From a virus (Duplodnaviria; Heunggongvirae; Uroviricota; Caudoviricetes): DNA of 44,347 nucleotides. A program made the translations under genes and the position numbers. Below the pieces are notes generated by a model. The model did not search any database and was not told the DNA's origin. It saw only the letters and a list, made by a program, of their open reading frames with translations. This document shows, one piece after another, positions 2,026-21,331 of this stretch. The stretch is from IMG/VR virus record IMGVR_UViG_2627853983_000003; one strand, given 5' to 3'. Every line of letters begins with the position of its first letter. Position 1 is the first letter of the stretch.

Positions 2026-3137
2026 CATTCCTTACCGCGTGCGTCGTTGTAAATATCGGTCATTTTTTGATTCGAATGGCCCAGCAAAATTTTGGTATCA
2101 ACCCCCTGCTCTCTGAACAATCGCTCTGATAAAGATCTCTGCTCATGGAAAGAGGGTGGGGTGCCATTAGCACGCCAGTTGTAATCCACAGAATCCCGGG
2201 CTTTTTTAAATGCAACGGTTAATGTTGCTGGCTTAACCATCCCGCCGCGCTTAGCTGTCCCTTTCGCGTGATGGTGGTGCAATAGCCACGGACTAAGAAC
2301 GCAATCGCGGCAGGATGACACCACATCATCTAGGGTGAGATTTAATTTATCGCAACGCAGAGCCAGAGGGATGGCAATCCGGGTTCCTGTTTTTTGCTGT
2401 TCGACATGAAGATAACCATCCCGGATATCCGAAAATTGCATTTTGCAAATATCTGAAAGGCGCTGGCCTGTCATCAGTGCCAGCAGCATACCGCGCTGTA
2501 AAAAGTAACCATCCTTTTCCGCTGCGTTATAAATCATCATCCACTCATCAAAAGTCAGTCGCTGTCTTGATATCCGCACCTGCGGTTTTTTTGCCGATTC
2601 TGCAGGGTTAAAGCCTGGCGGGACATCGCCCGTTTGCTGAGCTTCCCGGAAAACATCGATCAGTACCTTCCTGAAAATTTGTCCCATTCTGTTATGTCCT
2701 CTGGCCTTGTACTCTTCCAGTACTGATACCACATCTTTTACGGTTATGGCATCTAACGGTCTGGTGCCAAAACGTTCATCAAATACCCTGAGAGGGGCCG
2801 CTTTCTGTTTCAGCGTGTTGAGTTTGATCTCGCCGTTTTCATATCTTTCCTGTTGAATTTTTCTGTAATTATTCAGAAAAATGGTAACGGTTGATGAACC
2901 GCCGGTATCACTAATAATTTTCTCCTGCAGACTGAGCATTTGTTCCATTTGCTGCCGGGCAAGACGGCTGTTCGCTTCTGCTGCAATAGTTTCTGCCAGT
3001 TTCTGGTCAATACTGCCGAGACCGTGATTTTTGCCTGTTATGGGATGCCTGTAACGCCAGTAAACTTTGTTATTTCTTTTGTCAAAATACGGAGATAATC
3101 CCGGAACATTGGTTTTATATTTTCGCGGGCGCGCCAT
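2007..3137 (-). CDS. int: Phage integrase, tyrosine recombinase (lambda Int family)
   Basis: Seen: 376 aa with lambda-Int-like layout and C-terminal catalytic region (DGYLHVEQQKTGTRIAIPLAL...PPSFHEQRSLSERL...LLGHSNQKMTDIYNDARGKEWKKLVI). Overlapped at its 5' end by a small excisionase-like gene. Confidence 0.9.
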   Translation of the reverse strand: MARPRKYKTNVPGLSPYFDKRNNKVYWRYRHPITGKNHGLGSIDQKLAETIAAEANSRLARQQMEQMLSLQEKIISDTGGSSTVTIFLNNYRKIQQERYENGEIKLNTLKQKAAPLRVFDERFGTRPLDAITVKDVVSVLEEYKARGHNRMGQIFRKVLIDVFREAQQTGDVPPGFNPAESAKKPQVRISRQRLTFDEWMMIYNAAEKDGYFLQRGMLLALMTGQRLSDICKMQFSDIRDGYLHVEQQKTGTRIAIPLALRCDKLNLTLDDVVSSCRDCVLSPWLLHHHHAKGTAKRGGMVKPATLTVAFKKARDSVDYNWRANGTPPSFHEQRSLSERLFREQGVDTKILLGHSNQKMTDIYNDARGKEWKKLVI

Positions 3138-3363
3138 CTTCCAGTATCCTCTTCAAAGCAGGGTGATCTGTGGCGATCACCTCCGGCTTGTTTACCATTC
3201 CGACAAAGCGAGCTTGCGGATCCACTCGCCAGCGTCTTCCAACTTTTTTGGGGAGAGGAAATATCATTCCGGCTTTAGCGTATTTACTTAACGTACTCGG
3301 AGTTGGGACCGGTTCACTGAATTCCTCTTTTGCCCACTCAGTGAGCAGAATAAGTCTTGCCAT
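3115..3363 (-). CDS. xis: Excisionase (Xis-like)
   Basis: Seen: 82-aa basic protein directly upstream of int and overlapping its start by 23 nt; motif EWAK...AGMIFPLPKKVGRRWRVDPQA is typical of excisionase/Xis winged-helix proteins. Confidence 0.7.
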   Translation of the reverse strand: MARLILLTEWAKEEFSEPVPTPSTLSKYAKAGMIFPLPKKVGRRWRVDPQARFVGMVNKPEVIATDHPALKRILEDGAPAKI

Positions 3364-3427
3364 GAGCGTCGTTCGCTAATCATGGTCGCCGCCACTATAG
3401 CTGGTGGGCAACGACCGGGGTTGAACA

Positions 3428-5899
3428 TTAAAAATCAGCCTGATTCGGGATCAGTTTTTGCCAGATAACTGAAACGTATTTTGCCTGGTAACGGGCGTCA
3501 TCAAGTGCATTATGGCGCTCACCTTCGAATGGAATAGCCGTTCTGGCATCGAAGTCTATGGCTTTCCCCAGCTCAACGATTGTGCGTACATCGCGATCGT
3601 TGTAGTAACGCCATGGGCAGGGGATCCCCTGCCGTTCGTATGAACGGCGCAAAATCGTGTTTTCGAAGTTGGCTCCATTTCCCCAGACCTGAACAAAAAA
3701 TTCACCGGAGTTTTCGTCGATAAATTCCCGCAATTGTAACAGTGCATCATCTAACGGGATTTCATCGGTCATAATGGCAGACTGCGCTTCACGTGATTGC
3801 TTCAGCCACCTTTTAATGACGTCACGATCAATGACTCCGCCAGCAGTTTCCAGATCGATAGTCTTACTAAATTCCGGTCCCATATCTCCGGTTTGCGGAT
3901 CGAAAAATATTGCATCTATTGAGATAATCGGGGCATCAGGATTTTTTCCCATGGTTTCAAGGTCAATCATCAGATGGTGCCACAACCTGCTGGTGGATGT
4001 GCTTTTACGATGACTGTTCACCTTAATTAAGGGATTTGCTGTCTCGCCTATTTCATTATTGTCATTGGCATGTTGATCGCCTTCGGTGCACTCCTTGTTC
4101 GGGAGTCCGGCATTTTCTATTTCCTCTGGATCTTTTTCCCGGGCTTCATCCTGGCTTTCTTCGTTGAATGTCTCCTGGTAGGTTGCGTCACCCATCACTG
4201 CGCCACAATCAGGGCAGTTACCACCACCAGTCTGATTGCATGCGGTACAAACTTTTTCCTCTTCCTGTTGCACGACTGGTTCAGGTTGTTTCGTTTCTGG
4301 CTCGTTTTGTAACGCATTTTGGCTGTTTTGTTCCGCTTTTTGGTCGTACTGTTCCGTTTCTGACTGGTTCTGGTGCACAGAATCGCGGGTTTCAATCCCC
4401 TTCACCCATTTCGGATCATTCGGGTCGCTAATCCCTTCAACAAATTCACCACGTGATGCAGCGAGCAACTTATTAGCGTCAGGCTGGCTGATACTGGCTG
4501 CCTGCATAATTTTGTTTACTTCGTCAGCGGTAACTTTTACCAGGTCTGGTTGTGCGGTCGTGTCAGATGCATCAGTATTTTGTTGTGAACCTGTGTATGT
4601 GCCGTTTTTGCGGGCAAAATATTCTTCTTTCGTGATTTCAGTTGCCCCGGCAGCCAGCGCCTTATCCAGACCAGAAAGTTTGTTTGCGCGACCGTATTTT
4701 TCGCCATCCTTGTCGGTGAAGAGGAAGTAGAACGGCCCCTCACGCTCTACAGATGGTTCGACTTCCACTTTGCATTCGGTTTTTTCGTTGTCCGGAATTG
4801 CCGTTTCCACTGCATCAGTTTCTGGTACTGGCGACGAGAGAGTATCAGTTGCGCTCTGATTTCTTCCTTCATCTTCAAACACGCCCTTTGTAGTCAGGTA
4901 TTCAGTAATGTATTTGTTCAGTGCCACAGGGTCTTTGTGAATGTCGATCGGACGTTCACGGACAAGGCCAAAAATAGTCTGGCGGTCGTAGCGAAGGGCA
5001 TCAGGCTGTTTGCGCATTGATGCCGAGATACGCTTCCAGTCTTCGCGGTCGTTGTCGATAACTTCATTTTTTGCCCAGCGATGGATGCTGCCGTCAATGT
5101 TTCCGGCATCCACATCACCAGGCCAGAGAGCGTAGGCCAGTTCGTCATCCAGTGTTTTCCATGTCTGCTTGTATTCGCGATGAATGGCAGCAATGACCGG
5201 GCTGATTTTTCCTGTTGAATTTTCAGTGTACTGTTGATTGGCTCTGGCGCGGGCGAGATCAACAACAGACGTGTATTTTCCGGTTTCCTTGCGTTCACCT
5301 TCACGACGTTTTTTCCAGATGCGCATCTCTGCCTGAATTTCGGGCCATTTGGCACCAGGCTTACATTTATGCTTAACCCACCCGATGGCATGCAGCTTAA
5401 GCTCCGGATACATGGCGTTAACTTCTGGCATTTTCATCAACGCTTCAACGATATGTCCGTCGAATGTTGCCATGTCTTCCTGCAACAATTCCTGTGCGCT
5501 AATAACCATATCAACGGTGATGTTTTCACATGTGTCGAACTTAACCATGACAGCGTTCTGTACTTCAGGGGCCAGCTTGTCAAAAGTGACGTTCATCGGA
5601 TCGGATTCAGTCTCAACCGGGACAAAGGAAGCAGACTCCTCATCCCAGCGGTTTTCCTGCATATATTCAGCATCCCAGGAATCGAGGGCAGGGCGGGGTA
5701 TACCGGGTTTATCCTCGCAGACAAGAAATTTATAAGCGCAGTCCTGAGCAGCCGGATAATGTTCCAGGAATTGCCAGTGAAATTTTGCGCGGGCGCGACG
5801 TTCATCACCGGCTTCAATGGCAGTGGCTACAGCGACGGCACCTTCTTCCTTTATTGCCTGTTCGTCCGGAATGGCGGCGCAAATAAAGACTTTACTCAT
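3428..5899 (-). CDS. Large phage exonuclease with C-terminal DnaQ-like (DEDDh) 3'-5' exonuclease domain; intact counterpart of the K-12 ydfE fragment
   Basis: Seen: 823 aa. C-terminal ~180 aa carry DEDDh motifs (MIDLETMG; WGNGANFENTILRR; HNALDDARYQAKY). The central region is acidic and Q-rich with a Cys4 ribbon (CTACNQTGGGNCPDCG). Sits immediately before xis/int, where lambdoid phages encode recombination nucleases. Confidence 0.7.
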   Translation of the reverse strand: MSKVFICAAIPDEQAIKEEGAVAVATAIEAGDERRARAKFHWQFLEHYPAAQDCAYKFLVCEDKPGIPRPALDSWDAEYMQENRWDEESASFVPVETESDPMNVTFDKLAPEVQNAVMVKFDTCENITVDMVISAQELLQEDMATFDGHIVEALMKMPEVNAMYPELKLHAIGWVKHKCKPGAKWPEIQAEMRIWKKRREGERKETGKYTSVVDLARARANQQYTENSTGKISPVIAAIHREYKQTWKTLDDELAYALWPGDVDAGNIDGSIHRWAKNEVIDNDREDWKRISASMRKQPDALRYDRQTIFGLVRERPIDIHKDPVALNKYITEYLTTKGVFEDEGRNQSATDTLSSPVPETDAVETAIPDNEKTECKVEVEPSVEREGPFYFLFTDKDGEKYGRANKLSGLDKALAAGATEITKEEYFARKNGTYTGSQQNTDASDTTAQPDLVKVTADEVNKIMQAASISQPDANKLLAASRGEFVEGISDPNDPKWVKGIETRDSVHQNQSETEQYDQKAEQNSQNALQNEPETKQPEPVVQQEEEKVCTACNQTGGGNCPDCGAVMGDATYQETFNEESQDEAREKDPEEIENAGLPNKECTEGDQHANDNNEIGETANPLIKVNSHRKSTSTSRLWHHLMIDLETMGKNPDAPIISIDAIFFDPQTGDMGPEFSKTIDLETAGGVIDRDVIKRWLKQSREAQSAIMTDEIPLDDALLQLREFIDENSGEFFVQVWGNGANFENTILRRSYERQGIPCPWRYYNDRDVRTIVELGKAIDFDARTAIPFEGERHNALDDARYQAKYVSVIWQKLIPNQADF

Positions 5900-6537: not shown

Positions 6538-6595
6538 AAAAAGGGCGGCAGAGCAGTCACGGAGTAAAACTGATACCGCCAAACGTCACCAGAAA
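6538..6595 (-). ncRNA. dicF: DicF small RNA (ftsZ-targeting, Hfq-dependent), processed from the dicB-operon transcript
   Basis: Seen: minus strand reads TTTCTGGTGACGTTTGGCGGTATCAGTTTTACTCCGTGACTGCTCTGCCGCCCTTTTT, ending in a GC stem plus U-run. This matches my recollection of E. coli DicF and sits in the ~460-bp ORF-free, hairpin-rich gap between ydfC and dicB. Ends approximate because DicF is cut from a precursor. Confidence 0.7.
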
Positions 6596-12267: not shown

Positions 12268-12954
12268 ATGACCCCAATAAAAATATTTATGACTATTGCT
12301 GATTTCAAACGGCCTAAATTGGAGCTCCCAAACGGGGCAAACAAACTACTACTGCACTCTTGCTGTGCTCCATGTTCCGGTGAAGTGATGGAGGCGCTTC
12401 AGGCCTCGGGAATCGACTACACCATCTTTTTCTACAACCCGAACATTCATCCTCAGAAAGAGTATTTAATTCGTAAGGATGAAAATATTCGCTTTGCTGA
12501 ACAACACGGCGTGCCGTTTATCGATGCTGATTACGACACCGACAACTGGTTTGAACGTGCCAAAGGAATGGAATGGGAGCCTGAGAGGGGGATCCGTTGT
12601 ACCATGTGTTTTGACATGCGTTTTGAGCGGACAGCGTTGTACGCTGCTGAAAATGGTTTCAGTGTGATCAGCAGTTCACTGGGCATTTCACGCTGGAAAA
12701 ATATGCAGCAGGTTAACGAGTGTGGGCGGCGAGCTGTTGCGCATTATCCGGGTATGGTGTACTGGGATTATAACTGGCGCAAGCAGGGCGGCTCGTCCCG
12801 TATGATTGAAATCAGCAAGCGCGAAAAATTCTATCAGCAGGAATATTGTGGCTGTGTGTATTCTCTGCGCGATACCAATCTACACCGCAAATCTCAGGGA
12901 CGCCCTCTTATCAAAATTGGCCAACTCCACTACGGAAAAGAAGAGAAGGAGTGA
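12268..12954 (+). CDS. queH: QueH-like protein (DUF208 family; putative epoxyqueuosine reductase), moron
   Basis: Seen: N-terminal [11 protein letters not shown] motif that I recall as the hallmark of QueH/DUF208 Fe-S enzymes, plus further conserved Cys (CTMC, CGC). Preceded by a 150-bp ORF-free region with TTGACA-like hexamers, suggesting its own promoter. Assignment is motif-based only. Confidence 0.55.
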
Positions 12955-13079
12955 TTTTATGGATCACCTTTCTGATTGATTTCATATTGGCGAGGTGACG
13001 TGAGTTAAGTAGAATGGCTGCGGGTGCTTGAGGCTATCTGTCTCAGGCATGAACACTGAAAGGCAGATAGAGAAAAGCC

Positions 13080-13150
13080 CCAGTTAACATTTCGCGTCCT
13101 GCAAGACGCTTAACATTAATCTGAGGCCCAATCTATGTCTCACAAATGTA
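13080..13150 (-). ncRNA. Putative Sok-like antisense RNA of the hok/mok locus
   Basis: Inference from locus architecture: hok loci carry a short antisense RNA across the mok translation start. Seen: candidate minus-strand promoter (TTGCCT-17-TAACCT) around 13155-13185 firing across the mok start. Boundaries are approximate. Confidence 0.3.
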
Positions 13151-13191
13151 GGTTAGCCTCTTACGTGCCGAAAGGCAAGGGGAAGCAGGCT

Positions 13192-13347
13192 ATGAAGCAG
13201 CAAAAGGCGATGTTAATCGCCCTGATCGTCATCTGTTTAACCGTCATAGTGACGGCACTGGTAACGAGGAAAGACCTCTGCGAGGTACGACTCCGAACCG
13301 GCCAGACGGAGGTCGCTGTCTTCACAGCTTACGAACCTGAGGAGTAA
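13192..13347 (+). CDS. hok: Hok-family type I toxin (51 aa); the in-frame upstream extension from ATG 13135 is the mok reading frame
   Basis: Seen: MKQQKAMLIALIVICLTVIVTALVTRKDLCEVRLRTGQTEVAVFTAYEPEE, a Hok/Gef-family sequence as I recall it; the 70-codon mok-like ORF (13135-13347) contains it in the same frame. Confidence 0.8.
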   Translation: MKQQKAMLIALIVICLTVIVTALVTRKDLCEVRLRTGQTEVAVFTAYEPEE

Positions 13348-16618: not shown

Positions 16619-17668
16619 ATGGCTAATACTGTAAAAATATCCAGTTGTGAGTTAATCAACGCCGACTGCCTGGAATTTATCCGGTCGTTACCCGAAAATT
16701 CTGTTGACCTGATAGTCACGGACCCGCCGTACTTTAAAGTGAAGCCTGAGGGCTGGGATAACCAGTGGAAGGGCGACGATGATTACCTGAAGTGGCTGGA
16801 CCAGTGTCTGGCGCAGTTCTGGCGGGTGCTGAAACCTGCCGGAAGTCTTTACCTGTTCTGTGGTCATCGCCTGGCATCTGATATCGAAATCATGATGCGT
16901 GAACGCTTCAGTGTGCTGAACCATATTATCTGGGCGAAGCCGTCCGGACGCTGGAACGGATGCAACAAGGAAAGCCTGCGGGCGTATTTCCCCGCCACAG
17001 AGCGCATTCTGTTCGCGGAACATTATCAGGGGCCGTATCGTCCGAAAGATGCCGGGTATGCGGCGAAGGGCAGTGCACTGAAACAGCATGTGATGGCCCC
17101 GCTGATTTCTTACTTTCGTGATGCGCGCGCGGCCCTGGGGATAACGGCAAAACAGATTGCAGATGCCACAGGAAAGAAAAACATGGTGTCGCACTGGTTC
17201 AGTGCCAGTCAGTGGCAGCTACCGAACGAAAGCGATTATCTGAAATTACAGTCGCTGTTTGCCCGGGTGGCAGAAGAGAAACATCAGCGCGGTGAACTGG
17301 AAAAGCCCCACCACCAGCTGGTGGATACGTATACGTCACTGAACCGGCAGTATGTGGAGCTGCAGAGTGAATATAAGCATCTGCGGCGGTATTTTGGTGT
17401 GACGGCGCAGGTGCCGTACACGGATGTGTGGACACATAAACCGGTGCAGTTCTATCCCGGGAAACATCCGTGCGAAAAACCGGCAGAAATGCTGCAGCAG
17501 ATAATCAGCGCAAGCAGTCGTCCGGGTGACCTGGTTGCAGATTTTTTTATGGGCTCAGGTTCAACGGTAAAAGCGGCACTGGCGCTCGGGCGTCGTGCGA
17601 TTGGCGTTGAGCTGGAGACCGGACGTTTTGAGCAGACAGTCAGGGAAGTTCAGGGTTTAATCGTTTGA
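16619..17668 (+). CDS. DNA methyltransferase (N6-adenine or N4-cytosine; beta-class motif order), orphan
   Basis: Seen: motif IV DPPY (LIVTDPPYF) near the N-terminus and motif I (FFMGSGST) near the C-terminus, the permuted order of beta-class amino-MTases. No restriction endonuclease gene adjacent. Confidence 0.85.
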   Translation: MANTVKISSCELINADCLEFIRSLPENSVDLIVTDPPYFKVKPEGWDNQWKGDDDYLKWLDQCLAQFWRVLKPAGSLYLFCGHRLASDIEIMMRERFSVLNHIIWAKPSGRWNGCNKESLRAYFPATERILFAEHYQGPYRPKDAGYAAKGSALKQHVMAPLISYFRDARAALGITAKQIADATGKKNMVSHWFSASQWQLPNESDYLKLQSLFARVAEEKHQRGELEKPHHQLVDTYTSLNRQYVELQSEYKHLRRYFGVTAQVPYTDVWTHKPVQFYPGKHPCEKPAEMLQQIISASSRPGDLVADFFMGSGSTVKAALALGRRAIGVELETGRFEQTVREVQGLIV

Positions 17669-17716: not shown

Positions 17717-17792
17717 CGGCCCTTTAGCTCAGTGGTGAGAGCGAGCGACTCATAATCGCCAGGTCGCTGGTTCAAATCCAGCAAGGGCCACC
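17717..17792 (+). tRNA. tRNA with CAU anticodon (Met, or Ile2 if lysidine-modified)
   Basis: Seen: hand-folded cloverleaf with 7-bp acceptor stem GGCCCTT/AAGGGCC, D-arm GCTC-AGTGGTGA-GAGC, anticodon loop CTCATAA (anticodon CAT), T-arm GCTGG-TTCAAAT-CCAGC, encoded CCA. Confidence 0.85.
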
Positions 17793-17893
17793 ATCACAAA
17801 CCGCCATTAGCTTATCAGGAAGAGCAGACGACACGATAACAGGGTTGTTGGTGCGGGGGCGGGTCCCCGATGGCGGTCCATTATCGGTATTCA

Positions 17894-17970
17894 GCGTTGT
17901 TAGCTCAGCCGGACAGAGCAATTGCCTTCTAAGCAATCGGTCACTGGTTCGAATCCAGTACAGCGCGCCA
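17894..17970 (+). tRNA. tRNA-Arg (anticodon UCU)
   Basis: Seen: hand-folded cloverleaf with acceptor GCGTTGT/ACAGCGC (one G-U pair), anticodon arm ATTGC-CTTCTAA-GCAAT (anticodon TCT), T-arm ACTGG-TTCGAAT-CCAGT, encoded CCA. Confidence 0.85.
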
Positions 17971-18107
17971 TATTCATTCTTCCAGATTCCTTCCGGCAGA
18001 GCCTTATACTGAAATATACCTGGCTCAGGATATTGTTGAAAATATTATATGTTTGTCAAAAATAAAAGTTCTGTTAAGTGTTGATTGAGTGTTTGTTATA
18101 CGGTCTA

Positions 18108-18434
18108 ATGGTTTTTTCAGCATTAAATATTTATCATTCATATGGTGTGGGTAGAGTGAATATTGATGAGGCGTCGGGGTGTTTCATCCTTAGGCAGCGT
18201 ATTGATATAGTCAATGCAGCACGAGCAAAGGCCTTCAGCCGTTTGACAGTTTTGTTCTGTACTCCTGATCGTCTTTCGGGAAGAGACGTTATTATTCTGA
18301 ATAGTGATGCTATACAGAGGGTTTGCGATGAGTTCATGGTGGCTAATTCAGAATTATTTACTCTTGTTCAGGAGTACAACAGAATAGCCAGGACCTGTGG
18401 TATGGATGAACTTCGGATTACTCATCTGGGGTAG
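18108..18434 (+). CDS. Hypothetical protein in the AT-rich cargo island (about 108 aa from the first ATG)
   Basis: Seen: ORF in the low-GC region at the stx position; start uncertain (ORF track begins at a GTG at 18078, first ATG near 18108, no clear Shine-Dalgarno). No family recognised. Confidence 0.3.
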   Translation: MVFSALNIYHSYGVGRVNIDEASGCFILRQRIDIVNAARAKAFSRLTVLFCTPDRLSGRDVIILNSDAIQRVCDEFMVANSELFTLVQEYNRIARTCGMDELRITHLG

Positions 18435-18825
18435 ATACATATCTGGATTATCACCGGTTACGGTAAAAAGTGATTGCTTACTGTTTTTGTGAATGGCATT
18501 GCTGCAGCCGGATAATGTCAGTGCTGGCTGACGGTGTGCTGGTGGCGGGTGTGGTGGTTGTTGCTTTCCCGTTGCTGAAAAAGAAAACGCCAGACTGTTA
18601 GCCGGGTATCAGTTAGCGGGAGAAATTTTTAAATACTTCACAATTCAGGCGGTTGATTGTTGTCTGGTTTGCGGGGAGTTTGTTAAAAGAAACTGGCATG
18701 GTGAATCCCCCTGTGCGGAGGGGCAATCAGCGAGTAGGTATATGGGATAATCGCGGATTCAGGTGCTGGTACTGAATTCACCGGGAGGCACCCGGCACCA
18801 TGCAATGGCACATAGCGCCACTCTC

Positions 18826-18854
18826 CAGCCCCTCTCCGGAGGGGCTGTTTATAT
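18826..18854 (+). terminator. Intrinsic terminator inside the cargo island
   Basis: Seen: CAGCCCCTC-tccg-GAGGGGCTG 9-bp stem followed by TTTATATTGATTTT. Confidence 0.5.
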
Positions 18855-18881
18855 TGATTTTGTCAGATGTGAGTAAACTCC

Positions 18882-19217
18882 TTATGGACTTTGTTGTTTT
18901 AGTCCATAAGGACATATTTGCAGAGTGCAACGGTTATTAAAGCATTCATTCAATACGTTATCTGTATTTGTAGGGCATTCCTGGCTGTTTTTGATTAAAT
19001 TCCAGAATGTTTTATTGAATGGTACTACGTTGTAAATGGTTACAGGTAGCACTTTGTTATTGAGCATGATGCCTGTGTGAGTCAGTGTAAATATACTTTC
19101 AGGAGGTAAGAAAGCATCCGATTGATACCAGATTATTAATTTTATTTTACTCCATATGACTGAAAAAGATATTCCGCATGATGGCTGGATAACTGTATCA
19201 ATCACAATCCACTTCAT
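18882..19217 (-). CDS. Hypothetical Cys-containing protein (111 aa), reverse-oriented low-GC moron
   Basis: Seen: ATG at 19217 preceded by AGGAAA Shine-Dalgarno; AT-rich upstream region (19220-19460) with promoter-like hexamers. Oriented against late transcription; about 33% GC versus about 50% for the prophage backbone. No family recognised. Confidence 0.4.
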
Positions 19218-19477
19218 TTAGTTTCCTTGTTTATGCCTTGCTGGTGATGTTCTGAAAAGTATAAATGATATTTTTGATTGTAAACCATAGAGCAGAATTA
19301 TTTTTCTGATGTTGTTTATTGTTTATTTAAATGCAGGGTGGTTTATATCTCGTCTTGTAGTTTATCCATGCATATCTGCTTGATGATGAGGTTTTTATTT
19401 AAGGTATGGTTTTGTGTTTTTTCTGTATTACATGTCAGGTATTTTAAAGAATCATTTTTCAGATGGTGGAAAGAACC

Positions 19478-21331
19478 ATGGCATTTAAACACTATGATGT
19501 TGTCAGGGCGGCGTCGCCGTCAGATCTTGCGGAAAAGCTGACACATAAACTGAAAGAGGGCTGGCAGCCGTTTGGTAGTCCGGTGGCCATAACCCCTTAT
19601 ACCCTGATGCAGGCGATTGCAGCAGAAGGTGATGTGGTCGTCAGTGGTGCAACTGAGCCGGAGTGGTACTACGTCATCGTACTGGCCGGGCAATCCAATG
19701 CCATGGCTTACGGTGAAGGGCTTCCGCTTCCGGATTCATACGATGCGCCCCATCCGCGCATTAAGCAACTGGCCCGTCGTAACACAGTGACTCCCGGTGG
19801 TGAAGTATGCGTATTTAACGACATCATTCCTGCTGACCATTGTCTGCATGATGTTCAGGATATGAGTACGATTAACCATCCCCGGGCTGACCTGAGCAAA
19901 GGGCAGTACGGCTGTGTCGGACAGGGCTTACATATTGCCAAAAAACTGCTTCCGTATATCCCTAATAATGCGGGGATCCTGCTGGTACCATGCTGTCGTG
20001 GTGGTTCGGCATTCACCCAGGGCACGGAGGGGACATTCAGCGAGTCCACGGGGGCCAGTCAGGATTCGGCTCGCTGGGGAGTGGGTAAGCCGTTATATCA
20101 GGATCTGCTTTTCCGCACGAAGGCAGCATTGCAGAAAAACCCGAAAAACGTTTTGCTGGCGATATGCTGGATGCAGGGGGAATTCGATATGACGAATGCC
20201 AGTTACGCCCAGCAGCCAGCAGCATTTCTTGCAATGGTACAGCAGTTCCGTGCTGACCTTGCCGGGCTGGCGGCGCAGTGTCACGGTGGAAGTCCGGCAT
20301 CAGTCCCCTGGATTTGTGGCGACACGACATACGCGTGGAAACAAGAACACGGTACGCAATATGAAGTGGTATATGGTGCATATAAAGGTAAAGAATCCCA
20401 GCAGATTTATTTTGTTCCCTTTATGACCGATGGTAGCGGAGTTAATACACCGACAAACAACCCGTCAGAAGATCCTGATATTGCCGGGTCTGGTTATTAC
20501 GGTTCGGCATCCCGAACGAACAAAAACTGGGTATCATCAAATCGCCCGACGCATTTCAGCTCATGGGCGCGTCGTGGCATTATTCCCGATCGTATGGCAA
20601 CTGCTATTCTGAACGTAGCCGGTCGCACCTTAGCCTTCATTAGTGGTAAGGCACCGGAAATCAAACCCTCGCCCGGCGGCGACACGCCATCGGGGCCGTC
20701 TGAAGATGCATCCGTACGCACAATCTCCCTGTTGCCGACAGCCGGAGATGCTGCTGCGCAGGGCTGGAGCATTAAGAATGGCGGAATTCAGTTGTCAGAT
20801 GGTGTATTTAAGATCACCAAGCAGAGCAATAAAGCCTGGTCCCTGACGCGCCCGGTGGATGACGCAGTCTCCCTGCTGACACGGGGTGGCAGACTGAGCT
20901 GTAAGTTTCGACTGTCAGGCGCACTGACCAACAATCAGTTCGGTCTGGGAATTTATCTGTATACCGATGTAGCGTTACCTGACGTCGTGGCGATGACCGG
21001 GACTGGTAACCCGTTCCTGATGTCGTTCTTCACCCAGACCACAGACGGCAAACTGAATCTGATGCATCACAAGAAAGCAGGAAACACAAAGTTGGGCGAG
21101 TTCGGGAATTACAGTAACGACTGGCAGACGCTGGAGCTGGTGTTCACCGCCGGCAGTGCCACGGTTACTCCGAAACTGAATGGAGTGGCTGGCCCGGCAT
21201 TCCAGGTCATAAAAGACAGTCTGACACTGGGGCTGAATGCGCTGACGCTGACGGATATTACCAAAAATGCAACGTATGGCGTTGAGATAGAAAGTCTGGT
21301 GCTGGAGATAAATGCACCGGCATCATCATAA
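19478..21331 (+). CDS. nanS: Prophage sialate O-acetylesterase NanS-p (N-terminal DUF1737, SGNH-type esterase domain)
   Basis: Seen: N-terminus MAFKHYDVVRAASPSDLAEKL... and esterase motif VLAGQSNAMAY. Established: Stx and related lambdoid phages carry nanS-p between the stx position and the lysis genes. ATG at 19478 has a GGTGGA Shine-Dalgarno; 19463 is an alternative start. Confidence 0.8.
   Translation: MAFKHYDVVRAASPSDLAEKLTHKLKEGWQPFGSPVAITPYTLMQAIAAEGDVVVSGATEPEWYYVIVLAGQSNAMAYGEGLPLPDSYDAPHPRIKQLARRNTVTPGGEVCVFNDIIPADHCLHDVQDMSTINHPRADLSKGQYGCVGQGLHIAKKLLPYIPNNAGILLVPCCRGGSAFTQGTEGTFSESTGASQDSARWGVGKPLYQDLLFRTKAALQKNPKNVLLAICWMQGEFDMTNASYAQQPAAFLAMVQQFRADLAGLAAQCHGGSPASVPWICGDTTYAWKQEHGTQYEVVYGAYKGKESQQIYFVPFMTDGSGVNTPTNNPSEDPDIAGSGYYGSASRTNKNWVSSNRPTHFSSWARRGIIPDRMATAILNVAGRTLAFISGKAPEIKPSPGGDTPSGPSEDASVRTISLLPTAGDAAAQGWSIKNGGIQLSDGVFKITKQSNKAWSLTRPVDDAVSLLTRGGRLSCKFRLSGALTNNQFGLGIYLYTDVALPDVVAMTGTGNPFLMSFFTQTTDGKLNLMHHKKAGNTKLGEFGNYSNDWQTLELVFTAGSATVTPKLNGVAGPAFQVIKDSLTLGLNALTLTDITKNATYGVEIESLVLEINAPASS

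Follow-up and report, generated by a model that had tools for sequence, protein, structure and literature searches.

The virus record IMGVR_UViG_2627853983_000003 (IMG/VR) comprises 44,347 nucleotides, and this whole stretch of DNA is referred to here as the window. At positions 17971-19462 it carries a region of low G + C content (GC). By sequence and position, this region belongs to the accessory (moron) DNA that a lambdoid prophage carries at its stx-equivalent hotspot. Very probably, this moron site holds four elements: iraL, an STnc100-family small RNA (sRNA), a gene of the phrog_2873 family and a gene for a DUF3927 peptide. Its reverse-oriented gene codes for a protein of 111 amino acids (aa) that is assigned, by its sequence, to IraL, which has already been characterized experimentally as the identical protein of uropathogenic Escherichia coli CFT073. 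Neither the main gene nor the sRNA nor the DUF family is new, and the locus is common. A preliminary description of the region, made from the letters alone, had recognized none of the products. This no longer holds, as the 111-aa protein is IraL and a mini open reading frame (ORF) belongs to a DUF3927/TciB-like peptide. What had been observed there is real and is already explained, because the ORFs are conserved and iraL has been characterized.

Position and Composition of the Cargo Site

With a GC of 0.395, the region is the minimum of 858 sliding 1492-bp windows, for which the median is 0.526. The iraL gene itself has a GC of 0.345 and the intergenic region between iraL and nanS-p one of 0.294. 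The gene order of the prophage is Q antiterminator, DNA methylase, tRNA(CAT), tRNA-Arg(TCT), the region 17971-19462, the SASA/DUF1737 esterase gene (nanS-p), holin and lysozyme. In the Shiga toxin phage 933W, the same slot is occupied by tRNAs, stx2A, stx2B, esterase and holin, so that the stx-equivalent position given in the preliminary description is correct, as is the low GC between the tRNA cluster and nanS-p. The late-operon slot shared with the stx2AB locus of 933W consists of Q, tRNAs, cargo, an STnc100-like element, esterase and holin. In contrast to 933W, the cargo of the window is unrelated and includes no toxin, and the iraL part is found on the opposite side of STnc100 and in reverse orientation.

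The backbone homology to 933W and to the phage LC645427.1 stops at 17978, and the homology to the 933W esterase gene restarts at 19477. Location between the tRNAs and nanS-p/holin, variable occupancy and a GC of 0.33-0.42 compared to the median of 0.526 were found for the cargo, as is expected for a moron at the stx site. The 1492-bp stretch is 100% identical in many sequence type 131 (ST131)-type genomes, and positions 1836-44342 of the window are 99.8% identical to the prophage adjoining ompW in E. coli strain 4/1-1 (NZ_CP023844.1).

Identification of iraL

The reverse-encoded protein agrees in all 111 residues with the IraM-family protein encoded by the potB prophage of CFT073, and the two share the accession WP_000871291.1. 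In CFT073, iraL has the locus tag c1429 (PMC12890032), and the protein was formerly named YcgW (PMC4045071). Residues 1-110 match the NCBIfam model NF007393 ("anti-adapter protein IraM") with 162 bits, where the cut-off is 121, and the RefSeq annotation of the product carries the same name. IraM of E. coli K-12 (b1160) belongs to this family as well, and both proteins are RssB anti-adaptors stabilizing RpoS. The two can be aligned ungapped with 62% identity over 107 aa; the 66 identical residues amount to 58.9% over a 112-column alignment, which agrees with the published figure (PMC4045071). For the IraM chain 8TWD_A (PDB 8TWD) the match of IraL has an E-value of 9e-32. IraM is reported to contact RssB through 14 residues, of which IraL retains 10 unchanged and replaces 4 conservatively (T13S, L75I, H63N, and I64V).

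The resemblance to the K-12 locus is restricted to the coding region, where the DNA identity is 70.6%, whereas flanks and promoter are unrelated; the K-12 iraM flanks were also tested for homology to the iraL locus as such, with the coding region as the only match. In the literature, the two anti-adaptors differ: Mg2+ starvation induces IraM, which touches RssB on both domains, while IraL acts in the logarithmic phase (PMC4045071; PMC10844676 for the 8TWD structure).

For IraL of CFT073, a two-hybrid assay, a pulldown and measurements of RpoS level and half-life were published (PMC4045071). The protein binds RssB, in the two-hybrid assays via the N-terminal domain only, and raises level and stability of RpoS in logarithmic growth (PMC4045071). 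The gene is common in uropathogenic E. coli and in Shigella and absent from laboratory strains (PMC4045071; Hryckowian et al., 2014, mBio). By binding the adaptor RssB at its N-terminal domain, the IraL protein of the window would block the delivery of RpoS to ClpXP by RssB; RpoS would then rise in exponential growth and the host would be pre-armed against stress.

The likeness to CFT073 extends beyond the protein. The same cassette, consisting of DUF3927, STnc100, the reverse iraL gene and its AT-rich promoter, is found there with the same transcription start sequence, and as in the window it is located in a lambdoid prophage between tRNAs and an esterase gene. In the potB prophage of CFT073, the cassette is accompanied by three tRNAs, an upstream IS200 and a truncated esterase gene. 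Unlike in that prophage, nanS-p is intact in the window, and the integrase end is shared with the ompW-site prophage.

Promoter and Transcription of iraL

The reverse-oriented 111-aa gene had been described as well-formed, with a Shine-Dalgarno sequence and an AT-rich promoter region, which was confirmed. The sequence published from rapid amplification of 5' cDNA ends (5'-RACE; PMC4045071) aligns to the minus strand at 19219-19250, where 31 of its 32 positions match, and places the transcription start at 19250; the single mismatch is a genuine single nucleotide polymorphism (SNP) relative to CFT073. The resulting 5' untranslated region (5'UTR) spans 19218-19250, and an AAGGAA Shine-Dalgarno motif is located upstream of the ATG. 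A -10 hexamer TATACT (19258-19263) and a candidate -35 hexamer TTTACA (19279-19284) precede the start. Between -100 and +33, 3 of 133 positions differ from CFT073, and both hexamers are identical.

From this sigma-70-type promoter of its own, iraL would be transcribed leftwards and against the phage late operon. Because the promoter is its own and points against late transcription, the gene would be expressible in the lysogen. During induction, Q-modified late transcription would cross the whole region and run antisense to iraL. The end of iraL lies 26 nt from the STnc100 terminator (18826-18885). A bidirectional terminator common to iraL and STnc100 was considered and is unsupported, since the hairpin has no U-tract on the minus strand.

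Two Insertions Around a Backbone sRNA

The STnc100 element was identified by the Rfam model RF02076, which is matched at full length (model positions 1-206) with 132.4 bits, the gathering score being 47. The minimum free energy fold recovers the closing stem, the three hairpins and the terminator of the STnc100 model. The Rho-independent terminator has a stem of 9 pairs, 7 of them G-C, at 18826-18847, followed by a T-rich tail. An intrinsic terminator had already been noticed at 18826-18854 and is present, but instead of standing bare it forms the 3' end of STnc100.

In the literature, STnc100/EcOnc27 is located 75 nt downstream of stx2 and is akin to the PasD sRNAs found upstream of the esterase gene (PMC12370729; PMC12711010; bioRxiv 10.64898/2026.05.13.724894). 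The related copy EcOnc27, downstream of stx2B, was reported as a discrete Hfq-associated RNA (PMC12711010). The element of the window shares its position with the PasD/EcOnc27 sRNAs, i.e., directly downstream of cargo and directly upstream of the sialate esterase gene. Its identity to the 933W and LC645427.1 copies is no more than 70-77%, the region of its second hairpin carries a deletion, and in the window the element converges on iraL. By analogy, it would act as an Hfq-associated sRNA whose intrinsic terminator closes the rightward cargo transcript.

Homologues of STnc100 follow stx2B in 933W, stand alone in LC645427.1 and occur as two copies in locus L007. A total of 107 phage records match the region, and the large majority of them match only around query positions 652-882, which is STnc100. 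The element has a GC of 0.55 (18667-18856) and divides two stretches of much lower GC. Insertion A, containing the phrog_2873 gene and the DUF3927 ORF, is missing from the "empty-site" phage LC645427.1, in which the tRNAs are followed by about 57 nt, STnc100, about 220 nt and the esterase gene. It begins with an AT-rich leader (17971-18077, GC 0.32) including a promoter-like site at 18036-18063; in number, promoter-like and terminator-like sites do not exceed those of shuffled sequence. Insertion B, the iraL cassette, is the lowest-GC 620-bp stretch of the window, and nothing homologous to the backbones of LC645427.1 or 933W was found from STnc100 to the start of nanS-p. Among 5426 complete E. 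coli genomes, insertion A is present in 1183 at a coverage of at least 80% and insertion B in 1446 at an identity of at least 90%.

These comparisons with 933W and LC645427.1 identify STnc100, at the level of sequence, as conserved phage backbone and insertions A and B as cargo. The region therefore comprises two separate insertions rather than one island, because the conserved backbone element divides them. Of the earlier view of a single acquired island of about 1.5 kb, the accessory nature of the DNA at a hotspot was retained and its unity was given up.

STnc100-like elements were located at 2344-2556 and 5650-5839 in L007, at 3697-3887 in L006 and at about 4749-4926 in L013. Such elements end different cassettes (stx2B; a TolA-like gene; AraC, an insertion sequence and phrog_2873) and stand alone in the empty site. 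The homology of the window to phage mEp460_ev081 breaks at 18804, within STnc100. This suggests that the STnc100-like element is a recombination boundary for the exchange of cargo. A RefSeq pseudo-coding sequence ("incomplete hypothetical protein", 18686-18811, minus strand) lies wholly antisense to STnc100 and is probably a spurious call.

The phrog_2873 Gene

For the rightward gene of insertion A, the longest ORF (18078-18434) has 118 aa; an ATG at 18108 would yield 108 aa and a GTG at 18156 a core of 92 aa. The product matches phrog_2873 with 193 bits, and homologues of 115-122 aa with 55-60% identity were found in other prophages. An ungapped alignment of 92 codons with a copy of 67.8% DNA identity gives a ratio of nonsynonymous to synonymous substitution rates (dN/dS) of 0.285. 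The identity at third codon positions is 54%, compared to 74-75% at positions 1 and 2, and the other two frames contain 3-11 stops. Judged by these alignments, the 92-aa ORF is a real protein-coding gene under purifying selection. It remained unannotated in its 118-aa form by RefSeq/PGAP (the NCBI Prokaryotic Genome Annotation Pipeline) in every genome inspected.

Among 1.84 billion cluster representatives, a profile search detected 20 relatives only. Homologues align without gaps down to 21% identity. The distant ones (21-40% identity) have 91-106 aa, and most of them, with 91-95 aa, start a few residues from the GTG at 18156. The conserved protein is for this reason taken to have about 92 aa, with a weakly conserved N-terminal extension. 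Thus, the 108-aa ORF of the preliminary description proved to be a real gene, and its extent was refined to the 92-aa core within a longest frame of 118 aa.

AlphaFold2 models two long antiparallel helices (predicted local distance difference test, pLDDT, of 85.5), and the protein is accordingly predicted to be a helical hairpin. For the 92-aa protein, no match was obtained in Pfam, NCBIfam, PADLOC or by a PDB sequence search, and Foldseek of the model against the PDB returned generic coiled-coil or helical hairpins only, none of them at E <= 0.001. In prophages resembling those of enterohaemorrhagic E. coli, a divergent phrog_2873 copy is found downstream of an AraC-type regulator.

The DUF3927/TciB-Like Peptide

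The second gene of insertion A follows the 92-aa gene after 35 nt. The hydrophobic 28-codon mini-ORF seen earlier at 18515-18601 is present, yet it is merely the C-terminal part of this 43-aa ORF (18470-18601). Its product matches Pfam PF13064 (DUF3927) with 93.2 bits against a gathering score of 25, and phrog_1470 ("TciB-like") with E = 1e-12. The product shares 96% identity with TciB of phage JLK-2012 over residues 12-39, whereas the N-terminus differs. A literature search on DUF3927 and TciB yielded only irrelevant papers.

In JLK-2012, for which the comparison of the tciA-tciB pair is with the annotation only, tciB overlaps the upstream TerB-domain gene tciA. The DUF3927 gene of the window shares with tciB the position just upstream of STnc100, but tciA is absent and the phrog_2873 gene is the upstream neighbour instead. 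The TolA-like protein of related prophages was tested as a candidate for TciA and is not TciA. A common transcript of the 92-aa and DUF3927 genes probably starts in the AT-rich leader and ends at the STnc100 terminator.

In a distant phage (L014, IMGVR_UViG_2922305957_000001, 3001-5193), a phrog_2873 homologue of 38% identity lies downstream of tRNAs, and after it come a TerB-domain gene, a DUF3927 gene and the genes for a holin and an M15 endolysin. Because both genes occur together there as well, the phrog_2873 and DUF3927 genes travel together. Searches for related loci gave two loci with protein P0026, which served for the comparison of gene order, and none with P0027 among genome contigs or with P0030 among viral contigs.

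Table 1. Coordinates of the annotated elements at and around the cargo site, given as positions of the window.
Element	Position	Strand	Basis
DNA methylase	16619-17668		
tRNA pair, left backbone boundary of the cargo site	17718-17970	+	ARAGORN, Rfam tRNA matches, RefSeq
tRNA(CAT)	17718-17793		ARAGORN
tRNA-Arg(TCT)	17894-17970		ARAGORN
Cargo insertion A (phrog_2873 gene and DUF3927 ORF), GC 0.42	17979-18628	+	
Conserved 92-aa protein gene, phrog_2873	18156-18434	+	
43-aa DUF3927/TciB-like small membrane protein	18470-18601	+	RefSeq CDS WP_023142244.1
STnc100-family sRNA, 190 nt, relative of PasD and EcOnc27	18667-18856	+	Rfam RF02076
Cargo insertion B (iraL gene, own promoter and upstream AT-rich region), GC 0.327	18857-19476	-	
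iraL coding sequence, 111 aa, RssB anti-adaptor, IraM family	18882-19217	-	
iraL 5'UTR and sigma-70-type promoter	19218-19284	-	5'-RACE mapping, sequence reading
nanS-p-type esterase (DUF1737, SASA, DUF6645), right backbone boundary	19463-21331	+	Pfam, RefSeq

Alternative Explanations

Several points weigh against the assignment of the four elements as described. The fold of STnc100 exceeds shuffled sequence in stability only modestly (z = -1.9), and no promoter of STnc100 was identified. The gene iraL has no canonical terminator, its minus strand running into the STnc100 hairpin without a U-tract there. Three SNPs distinguish its promoter and 5'UTR from those of CFT073, one at -1, one in the spacer and one 3 nt ahead of the ATG, and could alter expression. 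For the 92-aa gene, the start codon is uncertain (18078/18081, 18108 or 18156). Nevertheless, it is extremely improbable that the ORFs are chance frames in AT-rich DNA and the stretch a non-coding spacer or decayed DNA. The AT-richness, the lack of a PGAP call on the 118-aa ORF, the dubious PGAP call antisense to STnc100 and the unremarkable promoter-like and terminator-like counts would all fit such a reading. For iraL it is refuted by the identical, characterized protein; the selection on the 92-aa ORF and its homologues down to 21% identity argue against it for the second gene, and DUF3927 and STnc100 score far above the curated thresholds. The ORFs are neither unconserved nor common phage genes of housekeeping function, so that the finding of real accessory genes stands.

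The preliminary description had furthermore placed the cargo in a virulence or defense context, and a new toxin, effector or anti-phage defense system analogous to stx or to other hotspot cargo would suit both the toxin gene position known from Stx phages and the category "moron/host takeover" of phrog_1470. Such a system is very improbable here. The three proteins have no match in PADLOC-DB at E <= 0.01 and no enzymatic or toxin domain in Pfam or NCBIfam, the predicted plain helical hairpin of the 92-aa protein has no significant structural match, and the main gene regulates the proteolysis of host RpoS. Nothing found points to a toxin, an effector or anti-phage defense. The possibility that iraL is a silent passenger in this prophage, silenced by H-NS or impaired by the SNPs and without a part in RpoS control, is unlikely as well. 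It would be compatible with the promoter region GC of 0.29 and with the SNPs at -1 and 3 nt before the ATG. On the other hand, both promoter hexamers are intact and identical, as are the Shine-Dalgarno and coding sequences, the promoter is at least 96% identical across all iraL strains (PMC4045071), and the module is kept at an identity of at least 95% in about one quarter of the complete genomes.

Beyond the assignment of the four elements to a moron site, a set of more speculative ideas can be put forward, the combination of which is considered doubtful. STnc100-family elements may represent a shared "cassette end" at which lambdoid phages swap late-operon cargo by recombination, and the cargo exchanged in this way may include stx2AB, AraC-type regulators, the TolA-like gene, phrog_2873 with DUF3927, and iraL. 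A read-through transcript of iraL would be antisense to STnc100 and could link the stabilization of RpoS to the activity of the sRNA. Finally, the phrog_2873 protein and the DUF3927 peptide could form a functional pair expressed in the lysogen.

Further Features of the Window

The tRNA with the anticodon CAT is called Met by ARAGORN and tRNA-Ile in RefSeq; the latter is the ileZ-type, lysidine-dependent reading typical of the tRNA clusters of Stx phages. For nanS-p, the start annotated in RefSeq is 19478 instead of 19463.

The assumption that the whole window corresponds to NZ_CP023844.1 was wrong for positions 1-1835. This part is unlike the ompW/yciC flank of that genome, and its junction was found in 1 of the 5426 complete genomes. 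It carries an ORF for a Rha-family regulator (822-1394), a C4 antisense RNA (1430-1517) and isrK (1541-1615), all on the minus strand, so that another mobile element abuts the integrase end of the prophage.

The sok antitoxin RNA with the hokD toxin gene in the nin region (13022-13347) and the DicF sRNA adjoining dicB (6543-6594) are ordinary lambdoid or Qin-like features. The early-right region includes a queH gene for an epoxyqueuosine reductase (12289-12954) as a further accessory gene of the prophage. A tandem repeat at 31329-31922 with a period of 162 bp (54 codons) and about 88-91% identity between the copies is located inside a long coding sequence annotated as portal protein (29803-32388).

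Implications

The result leaves the views of the families involved unaffected, and a stretch of anonymous-looking low-GC DNA now has a definite identity. With the phrog_2873 gene, a conserved phage gene is missing from the inspected RefSeq annotations; about 1200 complete E. coli genomes contain its module. For the host, the finding would mean that an ST131-type prophage supplies it with IraL, a stabilizer of RpoS for which a benefit to the stress tolerance and niche adaptation of extraintestinal E. coli has been proposed.

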